A stretch of 60,607 nucleotides of DNA from an uncultured Anaerolineaceae bacterium (lineage in GTDB: Bacteria > Chloroflexota > Anaerolineae > Anaerolineales > UBA4823). The notes under the pieces were generated by a model. The model ran no database searches. It was not told where the DNA came from and saw only the letters and a program-made list of their open reading frames with translations. The stretch spans positions 1 to 60,607 of the forward strand of contig CAZXPK010000003.1 in the NCBI GenBank assembly GCA_964642565.1, read 5' to 3'. How positions within the stretch are numbered: the stretch's first letter is position 1; the number at the start of each line of letters is the position of its first letter. The translations under genes and the position numbers were made by a program. Of this stretch, positions 16,191-51,734 are shown piece after piece.

Positions 16191-16223
16191 GATAGATCTA
16201 TGAAAGGATAAGGCACAAGTCCT

Positions 16224-29206: not shown

Positions 29207-29215
29207 GAGTTACGA

Positions 29216-30001: not shown

Positions 30002-30100
30002 CAATCTCGTCTGAGGAGGAGTGACCCTAAGAGATACTATAAAAAGTAGCAACCCACATCGTCCAACACAAAAACAACCCTATATCTAAGGAGACTTTCT

Positions 30101-32174: not shown

Positions 32175-32741
32175 ATGGTCACCAAAGAAGATCTTATCTA
32201 CCGGCAGGTATTCACCTTAAAGGATGGAGCGAGGATCTTGCTTCGTCCGCTGACTCAGGACGATCGTCAGGCATTGATCGATCTATTCGGGCCAGTATCG
32301 ACGGAAGATCTGCGATACATGCGGCACAACGTAAAAGATTCACAGGTTATCTGTCAGTGGGTGGATGGACTCGACTATACCAAAGTATTTCCCTTGGTAG
32401 CAGTATTTGGGAGCAGGATTGTTGGTCTGGCAAGCCTTCACCTCAACCAGGGACCTGCCCGCCACCGTGCAGAAGTTCGGGTATTTCTACCCAGGGATTT
32501 CCGGCATCGTGGAGTAGGCAGCAGATTGCTACAAGGGTTAATCGAATTAGCAAAACGCCATAATCTTTATCTTATAGAAGCCCAAATCCCGAGTGACCAG
32601 ACTCCCATCATCCGTTCTTTTCAAAACCTTGGGTTTGAGCCAAAAACTGTATTTGATGATTACTTCATGCTCCCAGACGGTGATCTACGCGATGTTACTC
32701 ATTTAATATTACGCTTACGCGCATCGGACGATCAATTCTAA
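32175..32741 (+). CDS. GNAT family N-acetyltransferase
   Basis: 188 aa. Acetyl-CoA binding motif RHRGVGSRLLQGLIELA (R/Q-x-x-G-x-G/A). Confidence 0.75.
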   Translation: MVTKEDLIYRQVFTLKDGARILLRPLTQDDRQALIDLFGPVSTEDLRYMRHNVKDSQVICQWVDGLDYTKVFPLVAVFGSRIVGLASLHLNQGPARHRAEVRVFLPRDFRHRGVGSRLLQGLIELAKRHNLYLIEAQIPSDQTPIIRSFQNLGFEPKTVFDDYFMLPDGDLRDVTHLILRLRASDDQF

Positions 32742-33254: not shown

Positions 33255-35276
33255 ATGGTACTTAAAGGTAAAAGGAGCTACGAGGAAAGATCATCAGATC
33301 CCGCAGCCCAGGAGATGCTCATCCGGGCAGACGAGCTGGGAATCGGCACTGCCTTTAGCCGAGCCGAGGATATGGTCCCATGCAATATTGGTGGAGCCGG
33401 AATGTGTTGTAAGCAATGTGGAATGGGACCATGCCGGCTCACCAAAGAAGGACAGGTTGGGGTGTGCGGTGCCACGATAGACACGATTCAAGCCCGTAAT
33501 TTGGTGCGCGCTATTGCAGCTGGAGCAGCAGCCCATTCGGATCACGGGCGTGATCTGGCATTCACTCTCAAAGCAGTTGCCAATGGTGAAACTGAAGGAT
33601 ATATTATCCGCGATGTAGCCAAGTTACGTAACATCGCCTCGATTTACGGTATCAAAATTGAGGGCCGTTCCCCAAACGAAATTGCTAATGACTTAGCTGA
33701 CTTATATACCGCTCAATTTGGGCAGCAAAAAGGCGAAGTCGTCTTAATCAAGCGTGCACCCGAAAAGCGCCAGAAATTGTGGCGGGAACAAGGTGTTGTT
33801 CCACGTGGTGTCGACCGGGAAATAGTCGAAGCACTGCACCGTACCCACATTGGCGATGACCAGGATGCCACACATTTACTACAACACGCCATCCGCACTG
33901 GTCTAGCAGATGGCTGGGGTGGCAGCATGATCGCCACCGACATCTCAGATATTTTATTTGGAACACCAGCCCCAATACTTGGGCAGGCCAACCTGGGAGT
34001 GCTGAAAGACGATATGGTCAACGTGATTGTGCACGGTCATGAACCAACGCTAAGCAACATGATTGTGGCTGCCTCCCAGGATCCTGAAATCATCGAATAC
34101 GCCAAACAGGCTGGTGCAAAAGGTGTGAATCTCTCGGGGATTTGCTGCACAGCCAATGAAATCCTTATGCGCCAGGGCATTCCAGCGGCTGGGAACTTTT
34201 TACAGCAGGAATTGGCAATTTTGACTGGTGCGGTGGAAACCATGATTGTAGACGTCCAATGCATCATGCAAGCATTAGTTAGTTTAGCTGGGAATTTCCA
34301 CACCAAGATCATCACCACCTCCCCAAAAGTTAAGATCAAGGGAGCAACTCACATAGAATTTGATGAGCACAAAGCTCTCACGATCGCAAAACTGATCTTA
34401 CGCCTCTCGATTGACAACTACAAAAACCGCGGCAAGATCCATATCCCACAGGTGCGGGAGGATCTCATCCCTGGATTTTCGCATGAGTATATCAATTACA
34501 TGTTAGGTGGCAGTTACCGGGCATCATTCCGGCCATTGAACGATGCCATCATGGCTGGTCGAATCCGGGGTGTAGCCGCCATCGTCGGTTGTAATAACCC
34601 GCGCAGCAAACACGACTACCTACATAATTATGTAGCTCAAGAATTACTCAAGCAAGACGTGCTGATTGTGGAAACTGGATGTGGCGCAATTGCAGCTGGC
34701 AAATTGGGACTCATGTTAGGTGAAGCTGGTTTAAATAAGGTGGGGCCGGGTTTACGCGAAATATGTGAAACCGTTGGCATTCCACCCGTCCTGCACATGG
34801 GTTCTTGTGTGGATAACACCCGCATTCTGACTGTCCTTACACAGATGGTGGCTGAAGGGGGTTTGGGTGATGATATCGACCAGATCCCAGCAGTTGGTTT
34901 AGCCCCGGAATGGATGAGTGAGAAAGCACTTTCGATCGCGACATACTGTATAGGTTCAGGAGCTTATGTCATCTTTGGAGGCGCGAGCCCAGTTAGCGGT
35001 ATGCCCGATCGCGTATCGGATAGTGACATCATCCTGAATTACATCGGCAGCGAGGGATGGGAAAAGCTTTACGGTGGCAAGTTGGAATTTGTTAATGATG
35101 CCAATGAGATGATCCGCAGGGCTTTGGAACATATTGATAAGAAACGCGCTGTCCTTGGATTACCGGTTTACGACCCTGCACGTTTTGGTCTCAGTGGTGA
35201 TACCCGCATGCTCGAATTCGAAAAACTGCCCATCGCTGAACGCAGGCAGAAAATCTACGGCACTGCTGCCGACTAA
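33255..35276 (+). CDS. acsA: carbon monoxide dehydrogenase catalytic subunit (CODH of CODH/ACS)
   Basis: 673 aa. N-terminal cysteine motifs (CNIGGAGMCCKQCGMGPCRL...GVCGA) and C-cluster region motifs (HGHE, GICCTANE, GCNN, MGSCVDN). Confidence 0.95.
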   Translation: MVLKGKRSYEERSSDPAAQEMLIRADELGIGTAFSRAEDMVPCNIGGAGMCCKQCGMGPCRLTKEGQVGVCGATIDTIQARNLVRAIAAGAAAHSDHGRDLAFTLKAVANGETEGYIIRDVAKLRNIASIYGIKIEGRSPNEIANDLADLYTAQFGQQKGEVVLIKRAPEKRQKLWREQGVVPRGVDREIVEALHRTHIGDDQDATHLLQHAIRTGLADGWGGSMIATDISDILFGTPAPILGQANLGVLKDDMVNVIVHGHEPTLSNMIVAASQDPEIIEYAKQAGAKGVNLSGICCTANEILMRQGIPAAGNFLQQELAILTGAVETMIVDVQCIMQALVSLAGNFHTKIITTSPKVKIKGATHIEFDEHKALTIAKLILRLSIDNYKNRGKIHIPQVREDLIPGFSHEYINYMLGGSYRASFRPLNDAIMAGRIRGVAAIVGCNNPRSKHDYLHNYVAQELLKQDVLIVETGCGAIAAGKLGLMLGEAGLNKVGPGLREICETVGIPPVLHMGSCVDNTRILTVLTQMVAEGGLGDDIDQIPAVGLAPEWMSEKALSIATYCIGSGAYVIFGGASPVSGMPDRVSDSDIILNYIGSEGWEKLYGGKLEFVNDANEMIRRALEHIDKKRAVLGLPVYDPARFGLSGDTRMLEFEKLPIAERRQKIYGTAAD

Positions 35277-35302
35277 GCGCGAAGAGACAATCCGGAGGAT
35301 TT

Positions 35303-37570
35303 ATGTCACGATACATAGCAACGAGAGCGATCCGAGGGGCAAACGCCCTGGTCACAGAAGCAGAATTAATGTTGAACCGAGCTTTAAAGGAAAAAGGACC
35401 AGACACTCCCGTAACATTCCCAAATACAGCTTATTACATCCCGGTTATAGGTGGGATGACCGGAGTAACGGTTGAAAAATTAGGCCAGCTTGAACAGGTT
35501 ATCAAGCATGCTCGAGGCTTACTCCACCCTACCCCATCGGATAACAAGTGGACGCCATATCTCGGTGAAACCCTCGATAGTGGTATGGCAACTCTCCTGG
35601 CTGCAGAAACGATTGAGGTGATCCGCTTTATATATGGGTTACAACCTGAACCAATGCCTGGGATCACCCTAGCAGGAGCAACCCAATATGGCGAACAAAA
35701 TGGTTCCGGTCATCTCAATGGTCCAATTGACGATATCCGCTTGCGCTCCTGGGGTATTCAATTGGTGGATGGTCGTATGCCGGGCTTTGCAGCCATCGTT
35801 GGTGCAGCTAAAACCAATGAAGTCGCAGTAAAGATCGTTCGTGAGCTTCAGCGCCGTAATATCTTGTGCTTCCTTTCCGGGAATGTCAATGGGAGGAGCA
35901 TCATCCACCAATTGATGGAAGAAGGGGTTGAGTTGGGTTACGATACTTATACAGTCCCCTTCGGAACGGACACGATCAGCGCAATTTATGCACTTGGTTT
36001 TGCTACCCGATCAGCTCTGACCTTTGGTGGTCTTAAAATGGGTCAGGCACGCGAAATCTTACTTTATAACCGGGCACGTGTATTTGCCTTCGTACTGGCA
36101 TTGGGCGAAGTGGATGACCTCAAGTATGCTTCAGCCGCAGGAGCCATCAATTATGGTTTCCCTGTCATCGCTGACACCGTCATCCCAGAAATCCTGCCCA
36201 CCGGTGTGACTACATTTGAACATGTGGTCAGCATGCCCTTTGAAGAAATAGAAGGCAAAGATGACTTAGAACGCGCTGAACGCCTGGTGCAAAAATGTAT
36301 TGAGGTGCGTGGAGTCAAACTTAAACTGACCGAAGTACCCGTTCCTGTACCTTATGGCTCAGCATTCGAAGGTGAAGTGGTACGCCGAAATGACATGCGC
36401 ATTGAATTCGGTGGAAAGAATGCGCGTTGTTTTGAGTACCTCGAAATGGCTGACCTTGAGGACGTGGTGGATGGGAAAGTAGAAATCATCGGGCCTGACT
36501 TCTCGAATATCCCACCACAAGGGTATATGGATATGGGCATCGTCGCTCATGTCGCTGGACGTCAGATGCAAAAAGACTTCGAGCCTGTGCTTGAACGACA
36601 GTTCCACTATTTTATCAACGGAGCCTCGGGCATCCAGCATATTGGACAACGCGATATCGCCTGGATCCGTATTTCTAACAATGCGGCTGATAAAGGATTT
36701 AACCTGGAGCACTTCGGTAAGATCCTGCACGCACGTTTCCACGGTGATTTTGGTGCCATAGTGGACAAAGTTCAGGTAACAATCTATACAGACCCTCCAA
36801 AAGTGGAGGAATGGTTGGCAAAAGCACGCACCGCCTATGATTACCGCAACAAACGTCTGGCAGATTTAACGGACGATAAAGTCGAGGAGTTCTATTCCTG
36901 CACCCTATGCCAATCCTTTGCTCCCAACCACGTCTGTGTGGTCAGCCCGGAACGCTTGGGATTGTGCGGTGCATATAACTGGTTGGACTGCAAAGCGTCT
37001 TTCAGTATCAACCCCACCGGACCCAACCAGCCAATCAAGCTGGGCAAGTTGATTGATCCAAAGAAAGGTTACTGGACTGGAACCAACGAATACGCGGTGG
37101 TCGGTTCGCACGGTGTGGTCAGTGAAGTTTCAATGTACTCGATCATGGAAAACCCAATGACTGCCTGTGGGTGTTTTGAATGTATCTGCATGCTCATCCC
37201 AGAAGCCAACGGAATTATGGTTGTCAGCCGTGAAGATCCCAGCATGACCCCGGCGGGGATGACTTTCAGCACATTGGCTGGGATAGCAGGTGGTGGCTTA
37301 CAAACCCCAGGTGTGATGGGTGTGGGCAAGTTTTATCTCACCAGTCCCAAATTCATTTCAGCCGATGGTGGTTTCAAACGTATCGTCTGGATGAGTAGTG
37401 TACTTAAAGAAATGATGGCGGAGGAATTCAAGGTTGTAGTAGAACGCGAAGGTGATCCTGATTTGCTTGAAAAGATCGCTGATGAGCGACACGTAACTAC
37501 AGTTGATGAGCTCCTGGACTGGTTGGCGGAACACAATCATCCTGCCTTAACGATGGAGCCAATGTTCTAA
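35303..37570 (+). CDS. acsB: acetyl-CoA synthase (A-cluster subunit of CODH/ACS)
   Basis: 755 aa. FPNTAYYIPVI N-terminus. A-cluster ligand motifs CTLCQSFAPNHVCVVSPERLGLCG and ACGCFEC. Confidence 0.95.
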   Translation: MSRYIATRAIRGANALVTEAELMLNRALKEKGPDTPVTFPNTAYYIPVIGGMTGVTVEKLGQLEQVIKHARGLLHPTPSDNKWTPYLGETLDSGMATLLAAETIEVIRFIYGLQPEPMPGITLAGATQYGEQNGSGHLNGPIDDIRLRSWGIQLVDGRMPGFAAIVGAAKTNEVAVKIVRELQRRNILCFLSGNVNGRSIIHQLMEEGVELGYDTYTVPFGTDTISAIYALGFATRSALTFGGLKMGQAREILLYNRARVFAFVLALGEVDDLKYASAAGAINYGFPVIADTVIPEILPTGVTTFEHVVSMPFEEIEGKDDLERAERLVQKCIEVRGVKLKLTEVPVPVPYGSAFEGEVVRRNDMRIEFGGKNARCFEYLEMADLEDVVDGKVEIIGPDFSNIPPQGYMDMGIVAHVAGRQMQKDFEPVLERQFHYFINGASGIQHIGQRDIAWIRISNNAADKGFNLEHFGKILHARFHGDFGAIVDKVQVTIYTDPPKVEEWLAKARTAYDYRNKRLADLTDDKVEEFYSCTLCQSFAPNHVCVVSPERLGLCGAYNWLDCKASFSINPTGPNQPIKLGKLIDPKKGYWTGTNEYAVVGSHGVVSEVSMYSIMENPMTACGCFECICMLIPEANGIMVVSREDPSMTPAGMTFSTLAGIAGGGLQTPGVMGVGKFYLTSPKFISADGGFKRIVWMSSVLKEMMAEEFKVVVEREGDPDLLEKIADERHVTTVDELLDWLAEHNHPALTMEPMF

Positions 37571-37603
37571 GGTCTAATCAGATTTTAAAAAGGAGTATTG
37601 CAT

Positions 37604-38581
37604 ATGCCTATTGAAATACCTAAGGATAACTGGCCTGGAACTGTCCGTACGGTGACCATCGGAGCGACTGTGTCCAATGGTGGTACGCGCACCTCCACTG
37701 TCACAGTGGGTGGTGAAAAAAATCTACCCTTCCTTCATTTTGAAACCAAGGTTCCCAACTGCCCGGCGGTGGCTATAGAAATTAAAGACCACCGTCCAGA
37801 TGATTGGTCGGCATTGCTTTTGAGTGCCTGGGGAGAAAACGTGAATGACCCAGCAAAATGGGCAAAAGCTGCTGAAGCCGCAGGTGCAGATCTGATCCAG
37901 CTCTCCCTGTCTCTGACAGACAAAGATGGCAAACCCACTTCGCCAGAATCAGCCGTCAAAGTAGTTAAAGATGTCCTGGCTGCCACCGGGTTACCTCTAA
38001 TGGTATTTGGTCCTGGGCAAGCTGAGGTTGATAACAACTTGTTAGTTCCTGTCGCTGAAGCCACTAAGGGGGAACGTCTGGTCCTGGGCATTGCAGAAGA
38101 TAAAAATTATCGCACCATCATCGCGACTGCTATGGCCAATGAGCACCTGGTGAATGCACGTTCGCCCATGGATGTCAACCTGGCCAAGCAGCTTAATATC
38201 TTGATCAGCGATATGGGGATGCCCCTCGATCGAGTCCTGATGGATCCTACCACCGGTGCCCTCGGATATGGGATTGAGTACGGTTACTCAGCCATGGAAC
38301 GACTCAGGCAAGCCGCCTTACAAGGCGATGCCATGACCCAGCTCCCCATGCTTGTTACACCGGGCTATGAAGCCTGGAAGACCAAGGAAGCTAAAGTTGA
38401 AGCTGGTGTACCTGCAGCTTGGGGTGACTGGTTGGAGCGTTCAATCAACTGGGAAACGTTGACTGCGATGACATTAATCGAAGCAGGCGCGGATATTGTC
38501 GTACTACGGCATGCTGAGAGCGTCCGGCGGGTCAAGTCGGCGATTGCAGATTTAATGGCTGCAGCATATACGCTTGCCTGA
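37604..38581 (+). CDS. acsD: corrinoid iron-sulfur protein small subunit
   Basis: About 325 aa, TIM-barrel-like, immediately upstream of acsC in the conserved acs gene order. ATG at 37604; the ORF-track TTG is at 37598. Confidence 0.8.
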   Translation: MPIEIPKDNWPGTVRTVTIGATVSNGGTRTSTVTVGGEKNLPFLHFETKVPNCPAVAIEIKDHRPDDWSALLLSAWGENVNDPAKWAKAAEAAGADLIQLSLSLTDKDGKPTSPESAVKVVKDVLAATGLPLMVFGPGQAEVDNNLLVPVAEATKGERLVLGIAEDKNYRTIIATAMANEHLVNARSPMDVNLAKQLNILISDMGMPLDRVLMDPTTGALGYGIEYGYSAMERLRQAALQGDAMTQLPMLVTPGYEAWKTKEAKVEAGVPAAWGDWLERSINWETLTAMTLIEAGADIVVLRHAESVRRVKSAIADLMAAAYTLA

Positions 38582-38623
38582 TCCAATGGATAAAGTATCA
38601 TATGATAACTACGGAGATGGAAT

Positions 38624-39964
38624 ATGGCTCTGACTGGCATTCAAATCTATAAATTACTACCCCAAACCAATTGCAAGGAATGTGGTTACCCAACCTGTTT
38701 AGCTTTCGCCATGAAGTTGGCAGCCAAGCAAGTTGAACTATCTGCCTGTCCGTACGTCACCCCTGAAGCGAAGACACAATTGGCAGAATCTGCTGCACCA
38801 CCTATCCGTCTTGTCGCCCTCAAATCTAATGGTTATGAGGCAAAAGCCGGAAATGAGGTTGTCCTCTTCAGGCACGATAAAACTTTTTATAACAAACCAG
38901 GCTTGTTTATCCGGGTCTATGATAATCAAGCAACCGACTCAATTAAATCATTGGTCAGCGAAGCGAACGCCTATGCGGTCAATTACGTCGGGATGGATCT
39001 GACCGTGGATGGTTTTGCGGTAGCCTCCTCATCTGGAGATCCGAACACTTTCAGCGCTGCAATTCAAGCTGTCCGTTCAGCCAGTAAACGTCCGATCATT
39101 TTAATGACCAGGGATGTCAACCTGGCGAAGGCTGGTCTGAGAGTTTTGCCGGGTGAAACCCCCTTGATCTATGGCGCGGACGCCAGGAACTGGGAAAGCT
39201 TTGCAGAGTTGGCAAAAGAAAGTAAAACCGCATTGGGTGTCATTGCCGGATCATTGGCTGAGATGGCTGAATTAACTGAAAAAATCAAAGCTAAAGGCGT
39301 TGAAGACCTGGTAATCGATCCAGGTGGACGTGATCTGGGGGCAGGACTAGCGATGGGCACTACCATTCGTCGCCTGGCTGTAAAAAAGAATTTCCGTGCC
39401 CTTGGATTTCCAGTGATCACCTTTCCTGGCGATGTGGGAGACCCAAGTATGGAAGCTGTGCATGCTGCACAAGCCATTAGCAAGTATGCAGGTTTCATTG
39501 TCTTGGATCATTTCAACCCGGCTATGATATACCCATTACTGGTCTTGCGTCAGAACATCTATACCGATCCACAAAAACCCATTCAGGTACAACCTGGTGT
39601 CTATGAAATCAATGGTCCAAAACCAGAAGATCCAGTATTGGTCACCACTAACTTCAGCATTACCTATTTCAGCGTTGCCAATGAGGTTGAAGGCTCAGGC
39701 TTGCCAGCCTGGCTGTTAGTGACGGATGCTGAAGGCATGAGCGTATTAACTGCCTGGGCTGCGGGGAAATTCGATGCAGAGAGAATCGCAAAGGCTATCA
39801 AGGGTTTCAATGTCGCTGATAAAGTCTCCCGAAAGCGCGTGGTCTTACCCGGTCATGTCGCGGTCCTATCTGGTGAGCTCGAAGGTGAATTACCTGATTG
39901 GGAAATCCGGGTTGGTCCGCGTGAAGCAGTCGATTTACCTGCTTTCATGAAGCAGGCACTATAA
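38624..39964 (+). CDS. acsC: corrinoid iron-sulfur protein large subunit
   Basis: 446 aa. N-terminal [4Fe-4S] motif NCKECGYPTCLAFAMKLA...CP typical of CFeSP gamma/large subunits. Confidence 0.9.
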   Translation: MALTGIQIYKLLPQTNCKECGYPTCLAFAMKLAAKQVELSACPYVTPEAKTQLAESAAPPIRLVALKSNGYEAKAGNEVVLFRHDKTFYNKPGLFIRVYDNQATDSIKSLVSEANAYAVNYVGMDLTVDGFAVASSSGDPNTFSAAIQAVRSASKRPIILMTRDVNLAKAGLRVLPGETPLIYGADARNWESFAELAKESKTALGVIAGSLAEMAELTEKIKAKGVEDLVIDPGGRDLGAGLAMGTTIRRLAVKKNFRALGFPVITFPGDVGDPSMEAVHAAQAISKYAGFIVLDHFNPAMIYPLLVLRQNIYTDPQKPIQVQPGVYEINGPKPEDPVLVTTNFSITYFSVANEVEGSGLPAWLLVTDAEGMSVLTAWAAGKFDAERIAKAIKGFNVADKVSRKRVVLPGHVAVLSGELEGELPDWEIRVGPREAVDLPAFMKQAL

Positions 39965-40035
39965 GACCATCTTTTGATATCGATATTTACTGATATCAAT
40001 GATGTTGGAATCGAAAACGGCAGAAAATAACCTTC

Positions 40036-41988
40036 ATGACTGAACACATAGTGACCTTTGATGTCACAAAAAAGCCAGTGCGCGTTCCTACAGGCACATT
40101 GCTTAGTGAGGCAGCGCGCCTGGCTGGTGTGGATATTGGCCAACCTTGTGGTGGACAAGGTCGCTGTGGTCGCTGTGCAGTCCAGGTTACCCATGGTGAT
40201 GTACGCCGGCGCAGTTCCTTACGCCTGAGCACGGAAGATGTAGCTCATGGATTTGCACTGGCGTGCCAGTCGGTTGTTGAAGGTGATGTCTCTGTCACAG
40301 TCCCACCTCAAGAAAAAATTGAACGGCGATTAACAACGGATCGAACTGCGATTGAAGTCTCGGTTCCACCGGATTATGATCCCATCTACGCTCAAACCGT
40401 CCGCCGAACCAGCCTACAACTTTCCCCTCCCCGTTTAGATGACCAGACAGATGATTGGAGTCGTCTAAAGACTGCCCTCCGCCAGAAAGCCCAAATTGAA
40501 AATATCAGCATATCACTCAATTTGTTGCAAACTTTGGGCACGAATTTGCGTGAAAACAACTGGCAGATTACAGCCATCACCGATGCACATGTGGAGATCG
40601 ATGGTAGTAGGACCGATGAACGCTTAGTAATGTTGATCCCGGACCTCGTGCCGGAAGATGACCCGCTGTACGGACTTGCCATTGATATTGGCACAACCAC
40701 GGTAACCGTCTGGCTGGTCGATCTGATCACTGGTAAAGTAGAAGCCCAGGTGTCAGAATACAACGGTCAGATTAGCCGTGGTGAAGATGTGATTTCGCGC
40801 ATTATCTTCTCCAGTAAAAATGGTGGACGTGAAGAGTTGCAGAATCGCGTGCTTGATACCATCAACCAGCTGATTGGTCAGGCCTGCAAACGAACCAATA
40901 CCAAACCACCGGACATCGTTAAAGCCACTGTAGCTGGAAACAGCACCATGGTCCACTTGTTTTTAGGGATCCCAGCATCCAGCATTCGATTGACTCCATT
41001 TATTACAGCAGTCAACCAGCCACCCATAATTACTGCGGGGACGATCGGTCTGGCAATTAACCCCGAAGCGTCAGTCGATTGCTTACCCGGTGTTGCCAGT
41101 TATGTCGGGGCTGATATTAGTGCAGGTGTCCTGGCATGCAGGATGGATGAAACCGATAAGCTTAGCTTGTTCCTGGATGTTGGTACCAATGGGGAGACTG
41201 TTCTTGGAAGCCGTGAATGGTTGGTCACCTGTGCTTGCTCTGCCGGACCAGCTTTTGAGGGCGCTGGCGTACTCTTTGGCATGCGGGCAACCAAAGGTGC
41301 GATCGAAGAATGTTGGATTTCAGGAGAAGGATCTTCCCATCCATATGAGCCCACTTATCGAGTCATTGGTAATAGTAAACCACGCGGCATTTGTGGAAGT
41401 GGGTTAATCTCATTACTAGCTGAGATGTTCCTGACAGGTGTTGTGGATAAAGGTGGAACAATAAATTTAGCTCTCGCTGGAATCAATCACAGAATTAGAG
41501 AAGGCGAGCACGGTGCTGAGTATGTGATCGCGTGGGGAAGCGAGACTGAGAGTGGAAAGGATATCGCCATCAACAATGTCGATATTGATAACCTGAAGCG
41601 CGCTAAAGCGGCGATTTATGCAGGTTTCACTGTATTGGCGCAGAGTGTTGGCGTACCACTGGAAATGGTGGAACAAATCCTGATCGGTGGCTCTTTCGGC
41701 AAATATATCAACGTAGAAAAAGCTGTACAAATCGGGTTGCTCCCCGATATGCCCTGGGATCGTTTCAAATTTCTGGGCAATACCTCTGTACAAGGTGCAT
41801 ATTTGGCACTGTTGGATTGGCGTAATCGCGATCGCATCAGAGATATCGCTGCACAAATGACATATATAGAACTGTCAGCTGATAACACTTTTTATGATGC
41901 ATTTATGTCGGCAATGTTCCTTCCCCATACCAATTTATCCAGTTTTCCAAGCGTTGCAGCTGCAGTCGAAAATAAAACCATAACCTAA
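40036..41988 (+). CDS. acsV: reductive activator of corrinoid Fe-S protein (RACo/AcsV; 2Fe-2S ferredoxin + ASKHA ATPase)
   Basis: 650 aa. N-terminal plant-type [2Fe-2S] motif (CGGQGRCGRCAV...ACQ), then actin-fold ATPase motifs (AIDIGTTTV, FLDVGTNGE). Confidence 0.85.
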   Translation: MTEHIVTFDVTKKPVRVPTGTLLSEAARLAGVDIGQPCGGQGRCGRCAVQVTHGDVRRRSSLRLSTEDVAHGFALACQSVVEGDVSVTVPPQEKIERRLTTDRTAIEVSVPPDYDPIYAQTVRRTSLQLSPPRLDDQTDDWSRLKTALRQKAQIENISISLNLLQTLGTNLRENNWQITAITDAHVEIDGSRTDERLVMLIPDLVPEDDPLYGLAIDIGTTTVTVWLVDLITGKVEAQVSEYNGQISRGEDVISRIIFSSKNGGREELQNRVLDTINQLIGQACKRTNTKPPDIVKATVAGNSTMVHLFLGIPASSIRLTPFITAVNQPPIITAGTIGLAINPEASVDCLPGVASYVGADISAGVLACRMDETDKLSLFLDVGTNGETVLGSREWLVTCACSAGPAFEGAGVLFGMRATKGAIEECWISGEGSSHPYEPTYRVIGNSKPRGICGSGLISLLAEMFLTGVVDKGGTINLALAGINHRIREGEHGAEYVIAWGSETESGKDIAINNVDIDNLKRAKAAIYAGFTVLAQSVGVPLEMVEQILIGGSFGKYINVEKAVQIGLLPDMPWDRFKFLGNTSVQGAYLALLDWRNRDRIRDIAAQMTYIELSADNTFYDAFMSAMFLPHTNLSSFPSVAAAVENKTIT

Positions 41989-42012: not shown

Positions 42013-42936
42013 ATGTACATCATCGGTGAAAACATCCATATTCTTTCAGATAAAGTGAAAGAAGCCGTAAAAGTGAAAGATGCGAAATTCTTTCAAGAGC
42101 TGGCTGTAAAACAAGTGGAAGCTGGTGCGCAGGCATTGGACCTAAATTTGGGCCCACGCAAAGTTGATTGGATGGATATGTTCCCCTGGATCGTCAAGAC
42201 TGTAGAAGCGGTCGTGGATGTACCGCTTTCCATTGACACGATCAATATCCTGGGTGTCGAAGCTGCTCTGAAGACAGTCTCCAAAGCACAGCCAATCATC
42301 AACTCCGTTTCCGATGAGCCAGAACGATTGGAAAAAGTGCCCTTACTGGCAAAGCAATACAACGCTCGCCTGATTGCACTGACCATGTCGACTAGTGGGG
42401 TTCCAGTAACGGCGGATGAGCGTGTCAATATTGCGCTTGAGAAACTCATCCCGCGCATGATGGAAATTGATTACCCTATGGAAAATCTGATCATTGACCC
42501 GTTGGTGTTGACTGTCTCAGGCTGCCAGCAATATTGCCCTCACCTCATCGAGGCTATCCGCACGCTTCAATTCGCATGGGATCCGCCACCGACAATCTCT
42601 GTAGGATTATCAAACGTGTCCAATGCTGTACCTCGCGAAGGTCGACCATTGATCAATCGAGTTTATTGTGCCATGCTGATGGGAGTTGGCATGAATATGA
42701 TGATCGCGGATCCTCTTGATAAAGAGCAAAACGAGGTCATCCGTATTATTGAACAACGCGATGCCAGTACACCAGTAGGGCGCTTTTACCTTAAAATCGC
42801 CGATCGCATTGCTGCGATGGAAGAACCGCAACTTGAAGATGTGGATATGAAGGACCCAGAGCAAGTAGCCATCTGGAAAACGATCCAAATTCTGCTCAAT
42901 AAAGTCATCTACGCTGATGGCTATTTACAACAATAG
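42013..42936 (+). CDS. acsE: methyltetrahydrofolate:corrinoid/iron-sulfur protein methyltransferase
   Basis: 307-aa pterin-binding (DHPS-like) barrel. MYIIGENIH N-terminus, SIDT and GLSNVS motifs. AAGGAGG RBS. Confidence 0.85.
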   Translation: MYIIGENIHILSDKVKEAVKVKDAKFFQELAVKQVEAGAQALDLNLGPRKVDWMDMFPWIVKTVEAVVDVPLSIDTINILGVEAALKTVSKAQPIINSVSDEPERLEKVPLLAKQYNARLIALTMSTSGVPVTADERVNIALEKLIPRMMEIDYPMENLIIDPLVLTVSGCQQYCPHLIEAIRTLQFAWDPPPTISVGLSNVSNAVPREGRPLINRVYCAMLMGVGMNMMIADPLDKEQNEVIRIIEQRDASTPVGRFYLKIADRIAAMEEPQLEDVDMKDPEQVAIWKTIQILLNKVIYADGYLQQ

Positions 42937-42946
42937 GAGAATATTT

Positions 42947-44302
42947 ATGACGAATCAAAATCAAGTGACTATCGAAGAACTTCTGGCAAAAGCGAAAAAA
43001 CCCGCAGCAGATGCGATGGTCTTGCACCCTTTCTACAAAGGGAAAGTCGAGACTACCCTAAAATGCTGCGTGCGGGATTTTAACGATTTTGCGATTTGGT
43101 ATACGCCGGGTGTCGCAGCCCCTTGTCGCGCAATCGAAGCTGACCCAGAGAAGGTGTACGAATATACCAATAAATGGAATACCGTCATTGTGGTCAGCGA
43201 TGGCACGCGTGTGCTCGGTTTGGGTGATATTGGTCCAAAGGCTGGTTTGCCCGTCATGGAAGGTAAAGCCTTACTCTACAAGTATCTCGGTGGCGTCGAT
43301 GGGGTCGCCATCATGCTTGATACAAAAGATCCGGATGCCATCATCAATACTACCTTGATGCTCCAGCCAGGGTTCGGTGGGGTAAACCTGGAAGATATCT
43401 CTAATCCAAAATGCTTTTATATATTGGATACCCTGCGTGAAAAAGCAGAGATCCCCATCTGGCACGATGACCAGCAAGGGACAGCTACTGTTACCCTGGC
43501 TGGATTGATCAATGCCCTCAAGGTGGTTGGAAAAGACAAAGAAAAAGTGAAAGTTACCTTCATTGGGGTTGGGGCCTCCAACGTAGCGATCTCACGTTTG
43601 ATTTTCAGCTGGGGAGTGAACCCGGCTAATTGCTTGATGGTGGATAGCAAAGGCATCCTTGGTAAGCGTCGCAAGGACCTTGAAATGCGGAAAGCCGAAT
43701 ATGTGGATAAATGGAAATTATGCCAGATAACCAATCTTGAAAACCGCGAAGGGAATATACCTGACGCAATCAAAGGTTCTGATGTCGTCGTTGCCCTCTC
43801 CCGCTCTGGTCCAGGTGTGATCCTTCCAGAATGGATTGAAACGATGGCAAAAGATGCGGTTGTGTTTGCCTGTGCCAACCCCGTCCCGGAGATATGGCCA
43901 TGGGAAGCAAAAGCCGCAGGTGCAGTTGTTGTCGCGACGGGTCGCTCAGATTTTGATAACCAGGTTAATAATTCGCTTGGATTCCCAGGTATCTTCCGTG
44001 GAACACTGGATGTGCGTGCCCGTACCATCACAGATGATATGTGCTTTGCCGCGGCAAAGGCCCTGGCAGATCATGTTGGATCAAACCTCACTAACGAGCA
44101 CATTTTACCCAACATGGATGATTGGGAAGTGTTCCCGCGCGAGGCCGCTGCAGTAGCCGTGAAAGCCCAGGAACAAGGGTTGGCACGTATACAGACGACC
44201 TACGAAGAGGAATTCAAGAACGCAACCGACATCATCGGGCGATCTCGCAACCTGACCCAAATGATGATGAAAGATGGCTTCATTGGCAAACCCCCTGTGT
44301 AA
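42947..44302 (+). CDS. NAD(P)-dependent malic enzyme (short form)
   Basis: [47 protein letters not shown] and GVGASNVA motifs. ATG at 42947 lies 10 nt after the acsE stop and has an AGGAGA RBS. Confidence 0.85.
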
Positions 44303-44329: not shown

Positions 44330-45235
44330 ATGTACGATCTAATTGTCGTCGGTGGTGGACCTGCGGGATTGACTGCAACGATTTATGCGATCCGTAAGCG
44401 CTTAAATGTCTTGCTCATTACGAAAGACCTGGGTGGGAAGACCAATTTTCGCCTCGCCTTACCCTGGGTGGAAGATTACCAGGTCATCAAAGGCTTGGAA
44501 ATTGTCAATAAATTCAAGAGCGAGCTTGAGTACCTTGAATTTGCCCGCCATATGGAACCAGCGGATAAAATCGTTCGCCATGAAAAAGATTTCATCGTCA
44601 AGACACGGGGTGGTGGTGACCTGCAAACCAAAGCCGTTATCATCGCCACAGGCACCCGGCAACAGCTCTTGAACGTACCGGGTGAGAAAGAGTTCATCAT
44701 GCGCGGGCTCTGTTACTCGGCCCTTAGCTATGCTCCGTTATTCATCGATAAATCGACGGTTGTCATCGGAGATGGAGACCTGGCTCAGAGGTCAACTGCC
44801 GAGCTCGCTACGGTTGCCAAGCATGTAACTCTAATCTGCCCGGCCGATAAACTCACGGTAACTAACGTGAATGAAAAATTGAAGGTTGCACCCAACGTCA
44901 CCATCCTGGAAGGTCACCAGGTCGTGGAAGTCAAAGGTGACGACTATGCCAAAAGCTTGATCATTAAGGACAAGAAAGGCAAGACCAGCGAGCTTCAGGC
45001 AGATGGAACCTTTGTAGAGATGGCATTGGTACCTAACTCACAGATCGTTGCTGATTTTGTAGCATTGGATGAGCAGAAGCGCATCATCATAGATTGTGGA
45101 AACCACACCAGTGTACCCGGTATTTTTGCTGCGGGTGATGTAACCAACACTTATGCAGAGCAGGTGCTGGTCGCAGTCGGTGAGGGAGCCAAAGCTACGT
45201 TGAGCGCGTACGAATATTTGCTCCCATTACTTTAA
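44330..45235 (+). CDS. thioredoxin-reductase-fold FAD oxidoreductase lacking the redox-active CxxC
   Basis: FAD motif YDLIVVGGGPAGLTA and C-terminal GIFAAGDV. The position of TrxB CATC reads SALS, and the HRRD NADPH motif reads CPAD. Confidence 0.8.
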   Translation: MYDLIVVGGGPAGLTATIYAIRKRLNVLLITKDLGGKTNFRLALPWVEDYQVIKGLEIVNKFKSELEYLEFARHMEPADKIVRHEKDFIVKTRGGGDLQTKAVIIATGTRQQLLNVPGEKEFIMRGLCYSALSYAPLFIDKSTVVIGDGDLAQRSTAELATVAKHVTLICPADKLTVTNVNEKLKVAPNVTILEGHQVVEVKGDDYAKSLIIKDKKGKTSELQADGTFVEMALVPNSQIVADFVALDEQKRIIIDCGNHTSVPGIFAAGDVTNTYAEQVLVAVGEGAKATLSAYEYLLPLL

Positions 45236-45247
45236 ATTAGATCCAAA

Positions 45248-45275
45248 CGGGGAGTGGTTACTTCACCACTCCCCG
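45248..45275 (+). other. GC-rich hairpin between the TrxR-like gene and metVF
   Basis: CGGGGAGTGG (45248-45257) pairs perfectly with CCACTCCCCG (45266-45275). No U-tract follows. Confidence 0.4.
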
Positions 45276-45308
45276 CCCAAAATCATATCGCCATGATGGA
45301 GGTCGACT

Positions 45309-46784
45309 ATGCCCGGATTTACCCCTGCCAGAAGATGGCAGCCACCTTACTACCCATTTAAACGAGAGCCATTTGGCACCCGCGTGCTTGAGTCAGTCGA
45401 AAGGGTTGTCAAGGGACCAATGTTTGGATGTCGCATGTGCGGGAATTGTTTATTACAGGAAACTGCCTTTATCTGTCCAATGGAATGCCCAAAGGGTGAA
45501 CGAAACGGTCCTTGTGGTGGTTCTACGACCGAATACTGTTATGTCGATAAAACCCGGCCATGTGTGTGGTATAAAATCTACGACCGCGCTTTTAGGATGG
45601 GACGGCAGGAGATGTTATTGGAAGTCCTTCCTCCCTTAGATTGGGATAAAACCGGAGGTGAAACCTGGGCTGATGTATATCATCAAATCCAAAAAGTAGG
45701 CGGGAAAAACTTCTTTGGCGGCTTATTATCCGGTGATGCCAAGAAGCGCTCAGAAGCCTGGAGCTCAGTCTTTCGCCCTGTTCGCCAACCTGAATGGTGG
45801 AATGGTGATGCGAATTACCATCCACCTGCTTATACTGAGCCCATCTCAAATCTTGAAAAACGCCTGAAGGCAGGCGAGTTCGTGGTAACAGCGGAAGTCG
45901 CTCCACCGATGACGGTTGCCACCAATAAGCTTCTGAAAAACATCGAGATCGTCAAGCCCTACGTGGCAGCAATCAACTTCACCGATTGCCCCTCCGCCTC
46001 CCCACGCATGTCTTCGTGGGCATGCAGCACGCTCACGATACAAGCAGGAGCGGAACCTGTAATGCAGATCGCAGCCCGCGATCGTACGCGCATTGGCTTG
46101 CAGGCAGAGGTGTTGGGCTCGAATGCCCTGGGAGTACGGAATATTCTTTGCCTGTCGGGAGACAGCATGGAGATGTCCAGCGTCCCGAAAGGGAAGATGG
46201 ACATCCTCGACATGGACTCGATCCACATGCTATGGATCTTGCGTCGGATGCGTGATGAAGCGATCTATATGGATGGGCGGCAGATCAAGTTCCCGCCCAA
46301 GTATTTCCTGGGTGCCGCGGGCTCTCCCTACGCATCCGAGCCACGCATCCAGGCCATCCGTGAGCATAAGAAAGTAAATGCCGGGGCACAATTCTTCCAG
46401 ACCAACCTGGTTTATGACCCCGAAAAGCTGGATGACTGGCTTGAAGCATTGGAGAAGCGCGGTATCCTTGAAAAAGTATTTATCCTCATCGGAATTACCC
46501 CACTGAAAAGCTTGAAAGTAGCTAATTATATGAATGAAGAAGTCCCAGGGGTTACCATTCCTGAGAAGCTCGTCAAGCGCATGGAAGCCGCTGGAGACAA
46601 AGCCGAAGAAGAAGGTGTTCAAATCGCACTTGAACTGATTGATGCCGTAAAGAATAAGAAAGGTGTCAATGGGATTCATTTGATGGCAGTTGGCTGGGAA
46701 GAGATCGTGCCTCGCATCATTACAGAAGCAGGCATATTACCCCCCGACTTCACACCTCCTGCAGCCCCGCCTCCCAAAGCATAG
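45309..46784 (+). CDS. metF: MetV-MetF fusion: methylenetetrahydrofolate reductase with N-terminal Cys-rich MetV-like domain
   Basis: The N-terminal roughly 110 aa has CRMCGNCLLQETAFICPMECPKGERNGPCGG (MetV/MTHFR_C-type). The remaining roughly 330 aa is a MetF-like TIM barrel (FVVTAEVAPP...FTDCP...LCLSGD...FQTN). Confidence 0.85.
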   Translation: MPGFTPARRWQPPYYPFKREPFGTRVLESVERVVKGPMFGCRMCGNCLLQETAFICPMECPKGERNGPCGGSTTEYCYVDKTRPCVWYKIYDRAFRMGRQEMLLEVLPPLDWDKTGGETWADVYHQIQKVGGKNFFGGLLSGDAKKRSEAWSSVFRPVRQPEWWNGDANYHPPAYTEPISNLEKRLKAGEFVVTAEVAPPMTVATNKLLKNIEIVKPYVAAINFTDCPSASPRMSSWACSTLTIQAGAEPVMQIAARDRTRIGLQAEVLGSNALGVRNILCLSGDSMEMSSVPKGKMDILDMDSIHMLWILRRMRDEAIYMDGRQIKFPPKYFLGAAGSPYASEPRIQAIREHKKVNAGAQFFQTNLVYDPEKLDDWLEALEKRGILEKVFILIGITPLKSLKVANYMNEEVPGVTIPEKLVKRMEAAGDKAEEEGVQIALELIDAVKNKKGVNGIHLMAVGWEEIVPRIITEAGILPPDFTPPAAPPPKA

Positions 46785-46832
46785 CTTGGTTATACGTAAT
46801 GTTTGATTAATTTTTATTGGTAAATAATTCGA

Positions 46833-47138
46833 ATGTCTTTACGCAGGTTGATATTAACTAAAACGGGGCAGGATGTACAACGCTGTCGTGGCTGCCAGCT
46901 GTGCAATACTGAACTCAGCCTCGACCAGGATATCCCTCTGGATAGCCTGATTCAACTTGTCATTATGAATGACGAGGAAGTGCTCACTTCCCGAACAGTA
47001 TGGTCAGATGAAGTACTACGTACAGCGCACGATGCCTGCGCGCGTCAGCTTGATCTGAAAAAAATCCTTCTCGTATTGAGAGATGAAGCTGTAAGAAGGG
47101 GGTTAGTTAAGCCTGAGAATCTCCCTAATGGGTTATAA
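46833..47138 (+). CDS. degenerate HdrC-like small protein
   Basis: 101 aa. It aligns by eye to the HdrC of this window (CRGCQLC vs CIQCGTC; EEVLTSRTVW vs EDVLKTNTFW), but the fourth Cys of motif 1 and most of motif 2 are missing. No obvious RBS. Confidence 0.5.
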   Translation: MSLRRLILTKTGQDVQRCRGCQLCNTELSLDQDIPLDSLIQLVIMNDEEVLTSRTVWSDEVLRTAHDACARQLDLKKILLVLRDEAVRRGLVKPENLPNGL

Positions 47139-47169: not shown

Positions 47170-47961
47170 ATGAAACTAGCAATAAGTGGTAAAGGTGGTG
47201 TAGGTAAGACAACCCTGGCAGCTCTGCTGGCACAGGTATATGCTGATGCAGGTCGCCAGGTACTTGTAGCAGATGCGGACCCATCTCCTTGTCTGGCGGG
47301 TGCATTGGGCTTTCCTTCTGAATTGCGAGCCCAACTGCATCCCATTGCAGAGATGGATGCCTTGATCGAGGAACGAACCGGTGCCAAACCAGGGACGATC
47401 GGCGGATTCTTCACCCTTAATCCGCGTGTGGATGATATCCCCGAGCGATTCAGTGTGATTCACAAAGGTGTTCGACTGCTGGAAATGGGTTCAGTGGACA
47501 CGGGAGGTTCAGGCTGCATCTGCCCTGAAGCTGCCATGCTTAAGACACTTTTTACTCACCTGCTCTTTCGCAAAGATGATGTGCTGATCCTGGATATGTA
47601 CGCAGGAGTGGAACACCTTGGAAGAGCAACAGTGGATTTTGTAGACGCCATGCTCATTGTGGTCGAACCCACCCGGCGAAGCTTGGGAACTGCCAGACAG
47701 ATCAAGCAGCTGGCGAATGACATCGGACTCACCCGATGCTGGTTGGTGGGTAACAAAGTGCGGAATAACGAAGAAAAGGTTTTTCTTGAGACTGAAACAC
47801 CCGGATTGCCTGTATTAGGCTTTATGCCTGCAGAACTACGTGTTCAAGAAGCTGATCGGTTAGGTGTACCGGTGTATGATCACGTCCCTGCTTTACGACA
47901 AGCTGCAGAGTTAATGGTGAAAGAGCTGGATGCCCAGCTGGTAAAAGGTCTGGTTGAATGA
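47170..47961 (+). CDS. cooC: CooC/AcsF-type nickel-insertion ATPase
   Basis: Deviant Walker A (ISGKGGVGKTT) and the CxC metal motif (GSGCICPE). Confidence 0.85.
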   Translation: MKLAISGKGGVGKTTLAALLAQVYADAGRQVLVADADPSPCLAGALGFPSELRAQLHPIAEMDALIEERTGAKPGTIGGFFTLNPRVDDIPERFSVIHKGVRLLEMGSVDTGGSGCICPEAAMLKTLFTHLLFRKDDVLILDMYAGVEHLGRATVDFVDAMLIVVEPTRRSLGTARQIKQLANDIGLTRCWLVGNKVRNNEEKVFLETETPGLPVLGFMPAELRVQEADRLGVPVYDHVPALRQAAELMVKELDAQLVKGLVE

Positions 47962-48743
47962 CGATTACTATCGCCCTTGCCGGTAAGGGAGGGGTTGGTA
48001 AAACCACCATCGCGGGGATGGTGATTAAATATCTGGTTCAAAACAAACCTGGTCCGGTCCTCGCCATCGATGCGGATCCAAGCAGTAACCTGAATATGGT
48101 GCTTGGGCTAGATTTGGATTGGACCGTGGGTGATATCCGGGAGGACATGCTGGCGCAGGTAAAAAGCTCAATCGTCGGTGGGGGGGCTGCTATGGGTTCA
48201 CTTCCAGGTGGTATATCCAAACACGATTATTTGGATCTTAAGATCAGGGCGTCGCTTTCAGAAGGTGAAGCATTTGATCTGATCGCCATGGGCCGGTCTG
48301 AAGGGACAGGCTGCTATTGCGCAGTGAATCATAACTTGCGGGAGGTAATTGATTCCATCAGTAAGAACTACCGTTATATTGTGATAGATAACGAAGCAGG
48401 TATGGAGCATCTAAGTCGGCGCACAACACGTGATGTGCAGCATTTGTTGATCGTCAGTGATCCGACCCAACGCGGTATTGTTGCAGCCGAGCGAATCGCC
48501 TCTTTTCGTAATGAGCTGGACATCCAGATTGAGCACGCCTACTTGATCATCAATCGATTGCCGGGGTCGCTTCCACCTGTGCTGCAAGCGGAAATAAATA
48601 AGCTGGATATCCCACTGTTGGGTACCGTCTCCACCGATGAAGAATTAAGTAACTTTGAATTCAGTGGAACACCGCTGGTTGAGCTGGGAAATGATTCACC
48701 AGTTTATCAAGCCGTAGCGGGTATGATGGACTCAATTCTCTAA
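47958..48743 (+). CDS. cooC: CooC/AcsF-type nickel-insertion ATPase (second paralog)
   Basis: LAGKGGVGKTT Walker A and GTGCYCAVN CxC motif. ATGA overlap with the first cooC. Confidence 0.85.
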   Translation: MTITIALAGKGGVGKTTIAGMVIKYLVQNKPGPVLAIDADPSSNLNMVLGLDLDWTVGDIREDMLAQVKSSIVGGGAAMGSLPGGISKHDYLDLKIRASLSEGEAFDLIAMGRSEGTGCYCAVNHNLREVIDSISKNYRYIVIDNEAGMEHLSRRTTRDVQHLLIVSDPTQRGIVAAERIASFRNELDIQIEHAYLIINRLPGSLPPVLQAEINKLDIPLLGTVSTDEELSNFEFSGTPLVELGNDSPVYQAVAGMMDSIL

Positions 48744-50619: not shown

Positions 50620-50967
50620 GTGAATTCAAAGATCCTATGGAAGGTCGAATATAAGAATGAGATCGAGCGTGCCCTCTTGGCTCGCTCAGATGGTAATGAA
50701 GGCATGGCACGCGTGTGTGCACGTCGTGCAGCTGGGATCATAATAGGTGAATATCTCAATCAACTTGGCTATTCTAGCATGAGCAATAGTGCCTACGATC
50801 GCCTATCGTTATTTATTACCTTACCAAATGTGGACAAAAAACATAAAGAGGTAGCCAGGCATTTTCTTATAAAGGTGAACCTGAATCATAATTTACCGGT
50901 AAAGGCAGACTTGATTAGTGATGTGATTTGGTTAAAAGAGAACTTGATAATAAATGATACCGGATGA
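50620..50967 (+). CDS. hypothetical protein
   Basis: 115-aa ORF with a GTG start. Predicted helical, no motif recognised. Its stop forms an ATGA overlap with the next gene. Confidence 0.4.
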   Translation: MNSKILWKVEYKNEIERALLARSDGNEGMARVCARRAAGIIIGEYLNQLGYSSMSNSAYDRLSLFITLPNVDKKHKEVARHFLIKVNLNHNLPVKADLISDVIWLKENLIINDTG

Positions 50968-51734
50968 CTATGCGCATACTTGCGATCATCAACAGTGATT
51001 ATGGCAACAGGCATCTATCCAACATTGCCCAATGTGCCCCATCTCATTGGGTAATTAACCAATGGAGAGCACCTGTTTTTTTCCCAATGGTTATTGATTA
51101 CCCCGAAGATTTTCTGCCTGTTGAGCTCCCACCAACCGATCTTATCCTTTCTTTCGCTGAACATAAAGGTGTAGCCGAGCTTATCCCCGATATTGCTAAA
51201 TTGACTGGAGCGAAGGCAGTAATCGCTGTTGTGGATAATGAAAATTGTCTTCCGCGCGGTTTGGCACGTCAATTACGCGGATGGTTGGATCAAATGAATG
51301 TTGCCTGTGCGACACCCAAACCTCTCTGTTCTCTGACTGAAACGGATTATTGGGTGACTCGACGACAGCGACTGCAGCACAACAGCCCTCTAATCGCTGA
51401 GTTTGCCCGGTATTTTGGGAAACCAGAATTTTCTATTGCGGTTGATCCTCAAAGTCAGAAAATAATATCAGTGGATGTAAAGCGTGACACAATGTGTGGA
51501 TGTGCACACTATGTAGCCCAAAAATTAATTGGGGTATCCGCTGACGAAGCTGAGTTTGAAGCTGGCATGGCTCATCATCATTTCCCATGTCTGGCAAGTA
51601 TGGGAATCGATGTCGATTTTAGTGACACCCTGATGCATGTATCCGGCAACATCATGAAGGATAATGTTGGTGAGCAGGTAAAATCATACAAGCACATTCA
51701 ATATCTAGCTCCTGGTTTACGCGCAGAAGAATGA
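50964..51734 (+). CDS. conserved-looking Cys/His-rich hypothetical protein (possibly DUF166-like)
   Basis: 256 aa with clustered potential metal ligands (CGCAHY, HHHFPC, MH). The DUF166 resemblance is a memory-based impression only. Confidence 0.5.
   Translation: MTMRILAIINSDYGNRHLSNIAQCAPSHWVINQWRAPVFFPMVIDYPEDFLPVELPPTDLILSFAEHKGVAELIPDIAKLTGAKAVIAVVDNENCLPRGLARQLRGWLDQMNVACATPKPLCSLTETDYWVTRRQRLQHNSPLIAEFARYFGKPEFSIAVDPQSQKIISVDVKRDTMCGCAHYVAQKLIGVSADEAEFEAGMAHHHFPCLASMGIDVDFSDTLMHVSGNIMKDNVGEQVKSYKHIQYLAPGLRAEE

Follow-up and report, generated by a model that had tools for sequence, protein, structure and literature searches.

Gene order at the metVF locus

The DNA analyzed here, called the window below, is a stretch of 60,607 nucleotides (contig CAZXPK010000003.1) from an Anaerolineales (Chloroflexota) genome, and its + strand carries a long Wood-Ljungdahl gene cluster. 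The genes under study lie within this cluster and encode a fused MetV-MetF methylene-tetrahydrofolate reductase (MTHFR), a flavoprotein with the fold of thioredoxin reductase (TrxR) and a small relative of HdrC. An initial annotation had proposed that these three products form a single MTHFR with an alternative electron input. A different organization is considered probable here, in which two independent two-gene modules are chance neighbors in the Wood-Ljungdahl cluster: a malic enzyme (ME) with the flavoprotein on one side, and MetVF with the small, one-cluster protein on the other.

All genes of this segment are read from the + strand. The methyltransferase gene acsE (42013-42936) is followed by the ME gene (42917-44302), which encodes 461 residues from the first ATG, and by the gene of the TrxR-like flavoprotein, termed TrxRL (44330-45235, 301 residues). 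A GC-rich hairpin (45242-45281) occurs directly 3' of the stop codon of the latter gene. It is followed by metVF (45309-46784, 491 residues) and by the gene of the small HdrC-like protein (46833-47138, 101 residues). The three open reading frames (ORFs) placed by the initial annotation between 44330 and 47138 are thus all present. The flanks it had described, acsE and ME upstream and cooC downstream, were likewise recovered, with Pfam recognizing two cooC genes (47170-47961 and 47958-48743) at the downstream boundary. The first ATG of ME overlaps the end of acsE by 20 nucleotides (42917-42936); related loci start ME at M11 (42947), about 10 nucleotides past the acsE stop codon, and the packing is tight either way.

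The malic enzyme and the TrxR-fold flavoprotein

By sequence, ME is a genuine malic enzyme. The protein combines the Pfam domains malic and Malic_M, as expected for a short prokaryotic malic enzyme, and aligns over nearly its full length with the Entamoeba (3NV9, E 3e-127) and Pyrococcus (1WW8, E 8.5e-127) enzymes.

TrxRL matches Pyr_redox_2 (Pfam, E 9e-36), and its best solved relatives are the low-molecular-mass (low-Mr) TrxR and AhpF (4ZN0, E 3e-44). Its AF2 model (pLDDT 79) gives Foldseek TM scores of 0.75-0.79 to TrxR/AhpF; this modeling returned the TrxR/AhpF fold alone, as expected, and no hint of a partner. TrxRL shares with low-Mr TrxR and with the C-terminal module of AhpF 30-32% identity, the two-domain fold and the flavin adenine dinucleotide (FAD) motifs of the GxGxxG and GD types, which are GGGPAG (residues 8-13) and FAAGDV (residues 266-271) and are invariant. 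Unlike these enzymes, it has no redox disulfide and no HRR motif. Both absences had been reported in the initial annotation and are visible in the alignment to 4ZN0, where the CAIC of the solved enzyme corresponds to S130-A-L-S133 and its HRRD to CPAD; the HRR position is variable across the family. The glycine motif of the NADPH domain reads GDGDLA in the window, GDAGLA and GSSGRA in ME-linked orthologs, and the NADPH site of low-Mr TrxR (GxGxxA and HRRxxxR) is therefore not found in TrxRL. Judging from these motifs, the flavoprotein appears to lack the canonical NADPH-recognition residues and may have lost NAD(P)H binding. It is under strong purifying selection (dN/dS 0.02-0.04), and the segment GLCYSALSYAPLFID is invariant in 26 homologs of 70-95% identity.

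The extent of this cysteine-less clade was explored among 1.84 billion proteins, each standing for one cluster at 50% identity, from which the nearest 150 were taken (P0241-P0390). All of the nearest 28 full-length representatives rank above the first CxxC form and, one frameshift-like outlier apart, they have SxxS, SxxT or a near equivalent at this site. The CxxC forms start at about 38% identity to TrxRL, and the first cysteine is missing in 54 of the 134 full-length sequences in this set. The clade is large and diverse, many of its members being just 40-58% identical to TrxRL, and its NADPH-domain glycine motif is degenerate throughout. A profile built on distant cysteine-less representatives and aimed at other phyla matched the same Chloroflexota family again, adding a few new members of 50-58% identity. 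Literature searches returned no published function for this clade and no description of a malic enzyme paired with a TrxR-like protein.

Other TrxR-fold proteins provide partial precedents. The TrxR-type ferredoxin-NADP reductases (FNRs) of the YumC, Chlorobaculum and Rhodopseudomonas kind have lost the disulfide and use a protein redox partner. The NADPH-independent TrxR relatives FFTR, DTR and DDOR are also TrxR-fold flavoproteins with a protein redox partner, and FFTR and DTR have lost NADPH binding. Unlike FNR and FFTR/DTR, the TrxRL family has apparently lost both the disulfide and the NADPH binding. TrxRL does not qualify as a TrxR-type FNR: CxxC is absent as in these enzymes, but the NADP motif, intact in FNR, is not conserved. 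It also stops at residue 301, level with the C-terminus of TrxR and without the C-terminal extension that stacks on FAD in FNR, and FNR structures match it at E 1e-17 to 1e-18, as against 3e-44 for TrxR/AhpF. A more distant parallel is found in clostridial Wood-Ljungdahl clusters, where lpdA and gcvH stand beside metVF and provide another gene of the Pyr_redox_2 superfamily whose role is unexplained (PMC8760232). Unlike TrxRL, LpdA belongs to the class I disulfide reductases, its cysteines and its NADH site are intact, and its partner is GcvH rather than a malic enzyme (PMC8760232).

The initial annotation had suggested surveying the synteny of these genes in related genomes. This was carried out over 200 loci anchored on the flavoprotein, 80 from Chloroflexota species genomes and 120 from metagenome contigs. 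For the species set, one genome per GTDB species was scanned, 211 genomes were found, and the best 80 loci (66-97% identity) were kept; the metagenome set resulted from an unsorted scan for the motif CYSA[L/I]SYAPLF, which yielded 120 loci (51-98% identity). Homologs are labeled Anaerolineales or Chloroflexota by their sources. Neighbors were scored by tblastn with the window proteins; an ORF clustering was also made on crude ORF calls, and the statistics cited here rest on tblastn. Each denominator includes those loci whose sequence extends far enough on the side concerned, and "fully flanked" refers to the 55 species loci that extend for 6 kb or more in both directions.

The flavoprotein gene is immediately preceded by ME in 143/143 loci, 78/78 from species genomes and 65/65 from metagenomes. 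The gaps between the two genes are mostly 2-90 bp, and the adjacency holds down to 50% identity. The downstream side is far less uniform. MetVF occupies it in 46/133 loci (29/72 species, 17/61 metagenome), while an HdrA-like gene (HdrA2 of about 1,050 residues where examined, then MvhD) is found there in 10/72 species and 12/61 metagenome loci; the remaining positions are taken by FolD, by an unknown gene with a 2-oxoacid:ferredoxin oxidoreductase behind it, or by unrelated genes. Among the fully flanked loci, 28 contain MetVF anywhere, 12 contain acs genes without MetVF and 15 contain neither, so that no MetVF lies within 6-7 kb of the flavoprotein gene in 27/55. On the upstream side of the pair the commonest gene is acsE; it precedes ME in 61 loci in all, and in 31 of the 44 metagenome loci that extend far enough. 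The trio of the initial annotation therefore splits in this survey: the small gene does co-occur with MetVF, but the flavoprotein goes with ME.

The order acsE-MetVF-(GNAT)-small-ME-flavoprotein is found in about 10 species loci and in P0401, with the MetVF-small pair standing ahead of ME and the flavoprotein. Each pair therefore moves as a block. In some other related loci the order is metV-metF-hdrCB-(GNAT)-small-ME-flavoprotein or ME-flavoprotein-FolD-MetV-MetF. More distant relatives of 50-58% identity (L205, L209, L155) show acsE-ME-flavoprotein-FolD-Rrf2-HdrA2-MvhD, and in L209 and L211 the next gene in the row is a giant one of about 1,500 residues that fuses NfnB/GltD-like and HdrA-like parts. 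In five species (L022, L023, L027, L029, L031) the pair lies outside any Wood-Ljungdahl cluster and is followed by a conserved 344-residue protein of unknown family, then by a two-subunit 2-oxoacid:ferredoxin oxidoreductase. No fusion of ME with the flavoprotein, or of MetVF with the small protein, was noticed among the ORFs of the fetched loci or the 150 representatives, as read off ORF lengths without a dedicated search.

The hairpin between the flavoprotein gene and metVF has a core stem formed by GGGGAGTGG and CCACTCCCC. Its position is kept in related loci (L001-L084), but the stems vary in sequence from one lineage to another. Within 90 nucleotides of the flavoprotein stop codon, 71-79% of loci have a hairpin of -15 kcal/mol or stronger, regardless of whether the next gene is MetVF, HdrA or another one, as against 27% for hairpins of the same strength in coding-sequence controls. 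This element is probably a 3' end, a stabilizer or an attenuator of the acsE-ME-flavoprotein segment of the transcript. Since most copies have no T-run, it may act as a 3'-end stabilizer or a partial terminator.

MetVF, the small HdrC-like protein and the distant hdr genes

MetVF combines an N-terminal MetV domain with 8 cysteines (PF12225, residues 29-112) and a C-terminal MetF TIM barrel (PF02219, residues 182-475), and its similarity to solved MetF structures is distant only (E 4e-6). No Hdr or RnfC-like domain was detected by Pfam in the genes neighboring metVF (40-49 kb), and no RnfC or Complex1_51K-type domain, as would be expected from the adjacent rnfC2 of type III enzymes, was seen in the ORFs scanned across the window. 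In type IV enzymes hdrCBA-mvhD is contiguous with metVF; here hdr-mvhD lies at 21835-25781 and metVF starts at 45309. In gene content, the locus thus corresponds to type II, which consists of MetV and MetF without Hdr or RnfC2 partners, though the two are fused here. Like the type II enzymes of Clostridium ljungdahlii, Thermoanaerobacter kivui and Eubacterium callanderi (PMC8760232), MetVF joins a MetV iron-sulfur domain to a MetF TIM barrel, and its gene lies in a Wood-Ljungdahl cluster without an adjacent RnfC2 or Hdr gene. Unlike them, it is a single polypeptide of 491 residues, and the next gene downstream encodes a conserved 101-residue HdrC-like protein, predicted to carry one cluster. 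In vitro, the type II enzymes take electrons from reduced ferredoxin and not from NAD(P)H, while the question of which donor feeds MetVF-type reductases physiologically has found no settled answer (PMC8760232). Literature searches on MetVF partners in Anaerolineae found nothing specific.

The 101-residue ORF has no Pfam match. With 271 homologs and a dN/dS of 0.06-0.12, which indicates purifying selection, it is nevertheless a real gene. Its relationship to HdrC, proposed by the initial annotation, was borne out by BLASTP against the HdrC of the window (E 7e-5) and by its top five PDB profile matches, which are all HdrC, although weak (E 0.005-0.25). The description of the protein as degenerate and retaining CxxCxxC only has to be revised, as a fourth cysteine is also invariant: C18, C21, C24 and C69 are all conserved in homologs of 43-100% identity. 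The first three align with cysteines 1-3 of HdrC motif 1, and C69 aligns with cysteine 4 of motif 2. In two-cluster ferredoxin folds, the last cysteine of motif 2 completes the cluster held by cysteines 1-3 of motif 1. The four residues therefore constitute a full ligand set for exactly one predicted [4Fe-4S] cluster. The protein does not display the two CxxCxxCxxxCP motifs, and hence the two [4Fe-4S] clusters, of HdrC itself, having four conserved cysteines only. The elements TGQD, DIP, WSD and LRxE are also invariant, down to 43% identity.

Compared with HdrC of known structure (PDB 5ODC, 8RVU), the small protein is alike in that its cysteines align to the ligand set of one of the two clusters. 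It differs by its half length (101 versus about 185 residues), by its single cluster set, and by the absence of the C-terminal HdrB-binding part and of an adjacent hdrB; no CCG-domain gene, as would be expected of HdrB, stands beside the small gene in the window. In some related loci, an HdrCB fusion is encoded upstream of the small gene. Three divergent small proteins (L056, L075, L082) keep the full first motif CxxCxxCxxxC(P), which fits descent from a two-cluster HdrC-like ancestor.

The small gene is present in 26/28 fully flanked species loci having MetVF and was seen only at loci with MetVF or with split MetV/MetF. Where MetVF is located on the far side of ME and the flavoprotein, the small gene comes after it there too, and it is likewise found behind split MetV/MetF-HdrCB clusters. 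Because of this co-occurrence, and because it stays with MetVF through rearrangement, its product is a credible extra MTHFR subunit. A gene for a GNAT acetyltransferase of about 190 residues often separates the small gene from MetVF or HdrCB (L065, L070-L074, L078, L160, L213); in the window, a GNAT gene occurs elsewhere in the cluster (32175-32741), beside a cNMP-binding protein.

The likeness to type IV enzymes, MetFV-HdrCBA-MvhD of Moorella thermoacetica and of the marine Anaerolineae DscP3 (PMC5736913), also deserves consideration. The small protein shows homology to HdrC over the N-terminal half of the latter, and related loci have metV-metF-hdrCB followed by the same small gene. Unlike type IV, neither HdrB nor HdrA is encoded beside metVF. 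The genes hdrC, hdrB, hdrA and mvhD (21835-25781, +) are found 18.5-22.5 kb upstream of the trio, where they are contiguous with the gene of a 274-residue cysteine-rich iron-sulfur protein (25778-26602, +) and with the formate dehydrogenase gene fdhA (26615-28663, +). Their location beside fdhA was correctly recognized in the initial annotation, but the distance of 17 kb given there was too short. FdhA probably contains selenocysteine, since an in-frame TGA (27023-27025) occurs in the motif ARL-U-HAPTV. The 274-residue protein has no Pfam match; it displays CxxCxxCxxxCP-like motifs (CIKCYGCRNICP and CVACRECEETCP) and may be an FdhB/FrhB-like electron-transfer subunit joining Hdr and Fdh. Hdr-formate dehydrogenase units typically have this arrangement, and such units (HdrBCA-FdhBA) have been discussed for marine Chloroflexi (PMC5736913).

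The rest of the cluster can be described briefly. Genes for rubrerythrin, fdhD and focA (28715-30955, +) come after fdhA, and acsA, acsB, acsD, acsC and RACo (33255-41988, +) precede acsE. Upstream of the hdr genes and of a two-component system, the EtfB and EtfA genes, bracketed by genes for a 401-residue and a 668-residue Fer4+CCG protein, both HdrD/LutB-like (13228-18230), look like an Etf-linked iron-sulfur oxidoreductase cluster. Downstream, a DUF166 gene (50964-51734) is kept a few kb beyond cooC in related loci, including L001 and L002, and is accompanied, on the opposite strand, by genes for a patatin-like lipase and a carboxylesterase. A scan for sigma-70 promoters was uninformative (11 sites versus 11.4 expected).

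Electron transfer in and around the methyl branch

The organization regarded as probable is that of two pairs, ME with the flavoprotein and MetVF with the small protein, whose adjacency in the window is fortuitous. Judged from gene content, motifs, conservation and synteny, the likely cofactors, the partners and the direction of electron flow can be pictured as follows. The flavoprotein would partner the malic enzyme in flavin-mediated electron transfer and would link the malate/pyruvate couple, via the NAD(P)H of ME, to a protein carrier such as ferredoxin. The pair would support the flow of carbon and reducing equivalents at the acetyl-CoA/pyruvate node, beside the methyl branch. The small protein, which descends from HdrC and represents its N-terminal half, would be an added one-cluster subunit of MetVF; it would receive electrons from the physiological donor, either reduced ferredoxin or a module of the Hdr/Mvh type, and deliver them via the MetV clusters to the MetF flavin. 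MetVF with this subunit would therefore be a modest variant of the type II reductase. Unlike its closest relatives, low-Mr TrxR and AhpF, TrxRL has SALS in place of CxxC, no HRR and a glycine motif degenerate in its orthologs, and its gene is paired with that of a malic enzyme, with no thioredoxin or peroxiredoxin gene nearby.

Several observations weigh against this interpretation. One flavoprotein homolog of 52% identity has no ME neighbor. The acs genes accompany the ME-flavoprotein pair in 40/55 fully flanked loci, and the pair often abuts an MTHFR-type module, either MetVF-small or HdrA-MvhD(-MetV/F-HdrCB) as in L103, so that it may be tied functionally to the methyl branch, even to MTHFR. 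The adjacency counts are moreover silent on genomes in which MetVF is located elsewhere. On the side of the small protein, L081 has MetVF without the small gene, no small ORF was detected in L042, a frameshifted metagenome-assembled genome, and the AF2 model of the protein, based on a shallow alignment, is unusable (pLDDT 59).

The position of the pair, mostly amid methyl-branch genes (acsE, FolD, MetVF, HdrA-MvhD), makes a looser link at the level of the pathway possible. ME and the flavoprotein would then be a co-regulated redox-supply unit for the whole methyl branch rather than an MTHFR subunit, with malate-derived NADPH going for example to FolD, or with ferredoxin, HdrA-MvhD and MetVF receiving the electrons. 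The location of the pair directly after acsE in 61 loci is in keeping with this idea, as are the occurrence of FolD, MetVF or HdrA2-MvhD directly after it in most loci bearing Wood-Ljungdahl genes and the order ME-flavoprotein-HdrA-MvhD-MetV/F-HdrCB of L103. The idea is nonetheless judged rather unlikely, since about one quarter of the fully flanked loci have no Wood-Ljungdahl context, the pair standing for example beside a 2-oxoacid:ferredoxin oxidoreductase, and since the hairpin suggests separate transcript ends.

The proposal of the initial annotation, a three-subunit MTHFR in which the flavoprotein is a new electron-input module replacing RnfC2 or HdrCBA-MvhD, fares less well and must be considered quite improbable. 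The three genes are indeed contiguous and co-oriented, both in the window and in every close relative, metVF of the window has no Hdr or RnfC gene next to it, and MetVF comes directly after the flavoprotein gene in 46/133 loci; even where MetVF lies upstream, MetVF, the small gene, ME and the flavoprotein gene remain contiguous. But the invariant neighbor of the flavoprotein is ME (143/143), half of the fully flanked loci (27/55) have no MetVF within 6-7 kb, of which 15 have no acs genes either, and a hairpin separates the flavoprotein gene from metVF. A specific partnership between the flavoprotein and MetVF is therefore not supported, while that part of the proposal which associates the small protein with MetVF stands (26/28). 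MetV-type enzymes already take ferredoxin directly (PMC8760232). The flavoprotein itself would be a poor input site for pyridine nucleotides, because the disulfide and the conserved NAD(P)H-binding residues are both absent. A role as an NAD(P)H-oxidizing module comparable to RnfC2 was likewise judged unlikely, the nucleotide motifs not being conserved.

Another source of electrons for MetVF could be the HdrCBA-MvhD proteins encoded 18.5-22.5 kb upstream, acting in trans as a type IV system with dispersed genes, the small protein serving as a MetV-Hdr adaptor. A complete hdrCBA-mvhD set is indeed available within the window, and the small gene follows metV-metF-hdrCB in other loci. In this type of locus, however, the hdr genes are unlinked to metVF and are contiguous instead with the iron-sulfur protein and the selenocysteine-type FdhA, in the layout of Hdr-formate dehydrogenase units (compare HdrBCA-FdhBA, PMC5736913), and such a supply in trans has little to recommend it.

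Finally, the notion that the small ORF is a functionless, decaying remnant of HdrC beside a plain type II MetVF is scarcely credible: the absence of a Pfam match, the survival of half of HdrC with one of its two cluster motifs and the lack of the gene after MetVF in L081 would agree with it, but they are outweighed by the 271 homologs, the four cysteines and the TGQD, DIP, WSD and LRxE elements invariant to 43% identity, the dN/dS of 0.06-0.12 and a linkage to MetVF that survives rearrangements.

Under the preferred reading of two separate pairs, the flavoprotein is a poor candidate for the donor of MetVF and is not specific to this enzyme. The small HdrC-like protein is a better lead in this respect, as a conserved and easily expressed companion of MetVF and a possible adaptor subunit. 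The pairing of a malic enzyme with a TrxR-fold flavoprotein devoid of both the disulfide and the NADPH motifs is in turn an unreported and strictly conserved association, found in the Wood-Ljungdahl clusters of many uncultured Anaerolineales. A bolder and quite speculative extension, to which a low probability is attached, would make ME and the cysteine-less flavoprotein a two-subunit enzyme that passes the electrons of the oxidative decarboxylation of malate (or takes them into the reductive carboxylation of pyruvate) directly via the flavin to ferredoxin or to HdrA-MvhD/MetVF, with the small protein docking on MetVF. If this were true, the Chloroflexota would possess a previously unknown redox input/output unit wired into the methyl branch of the Wood-Ljungdahl pathway.

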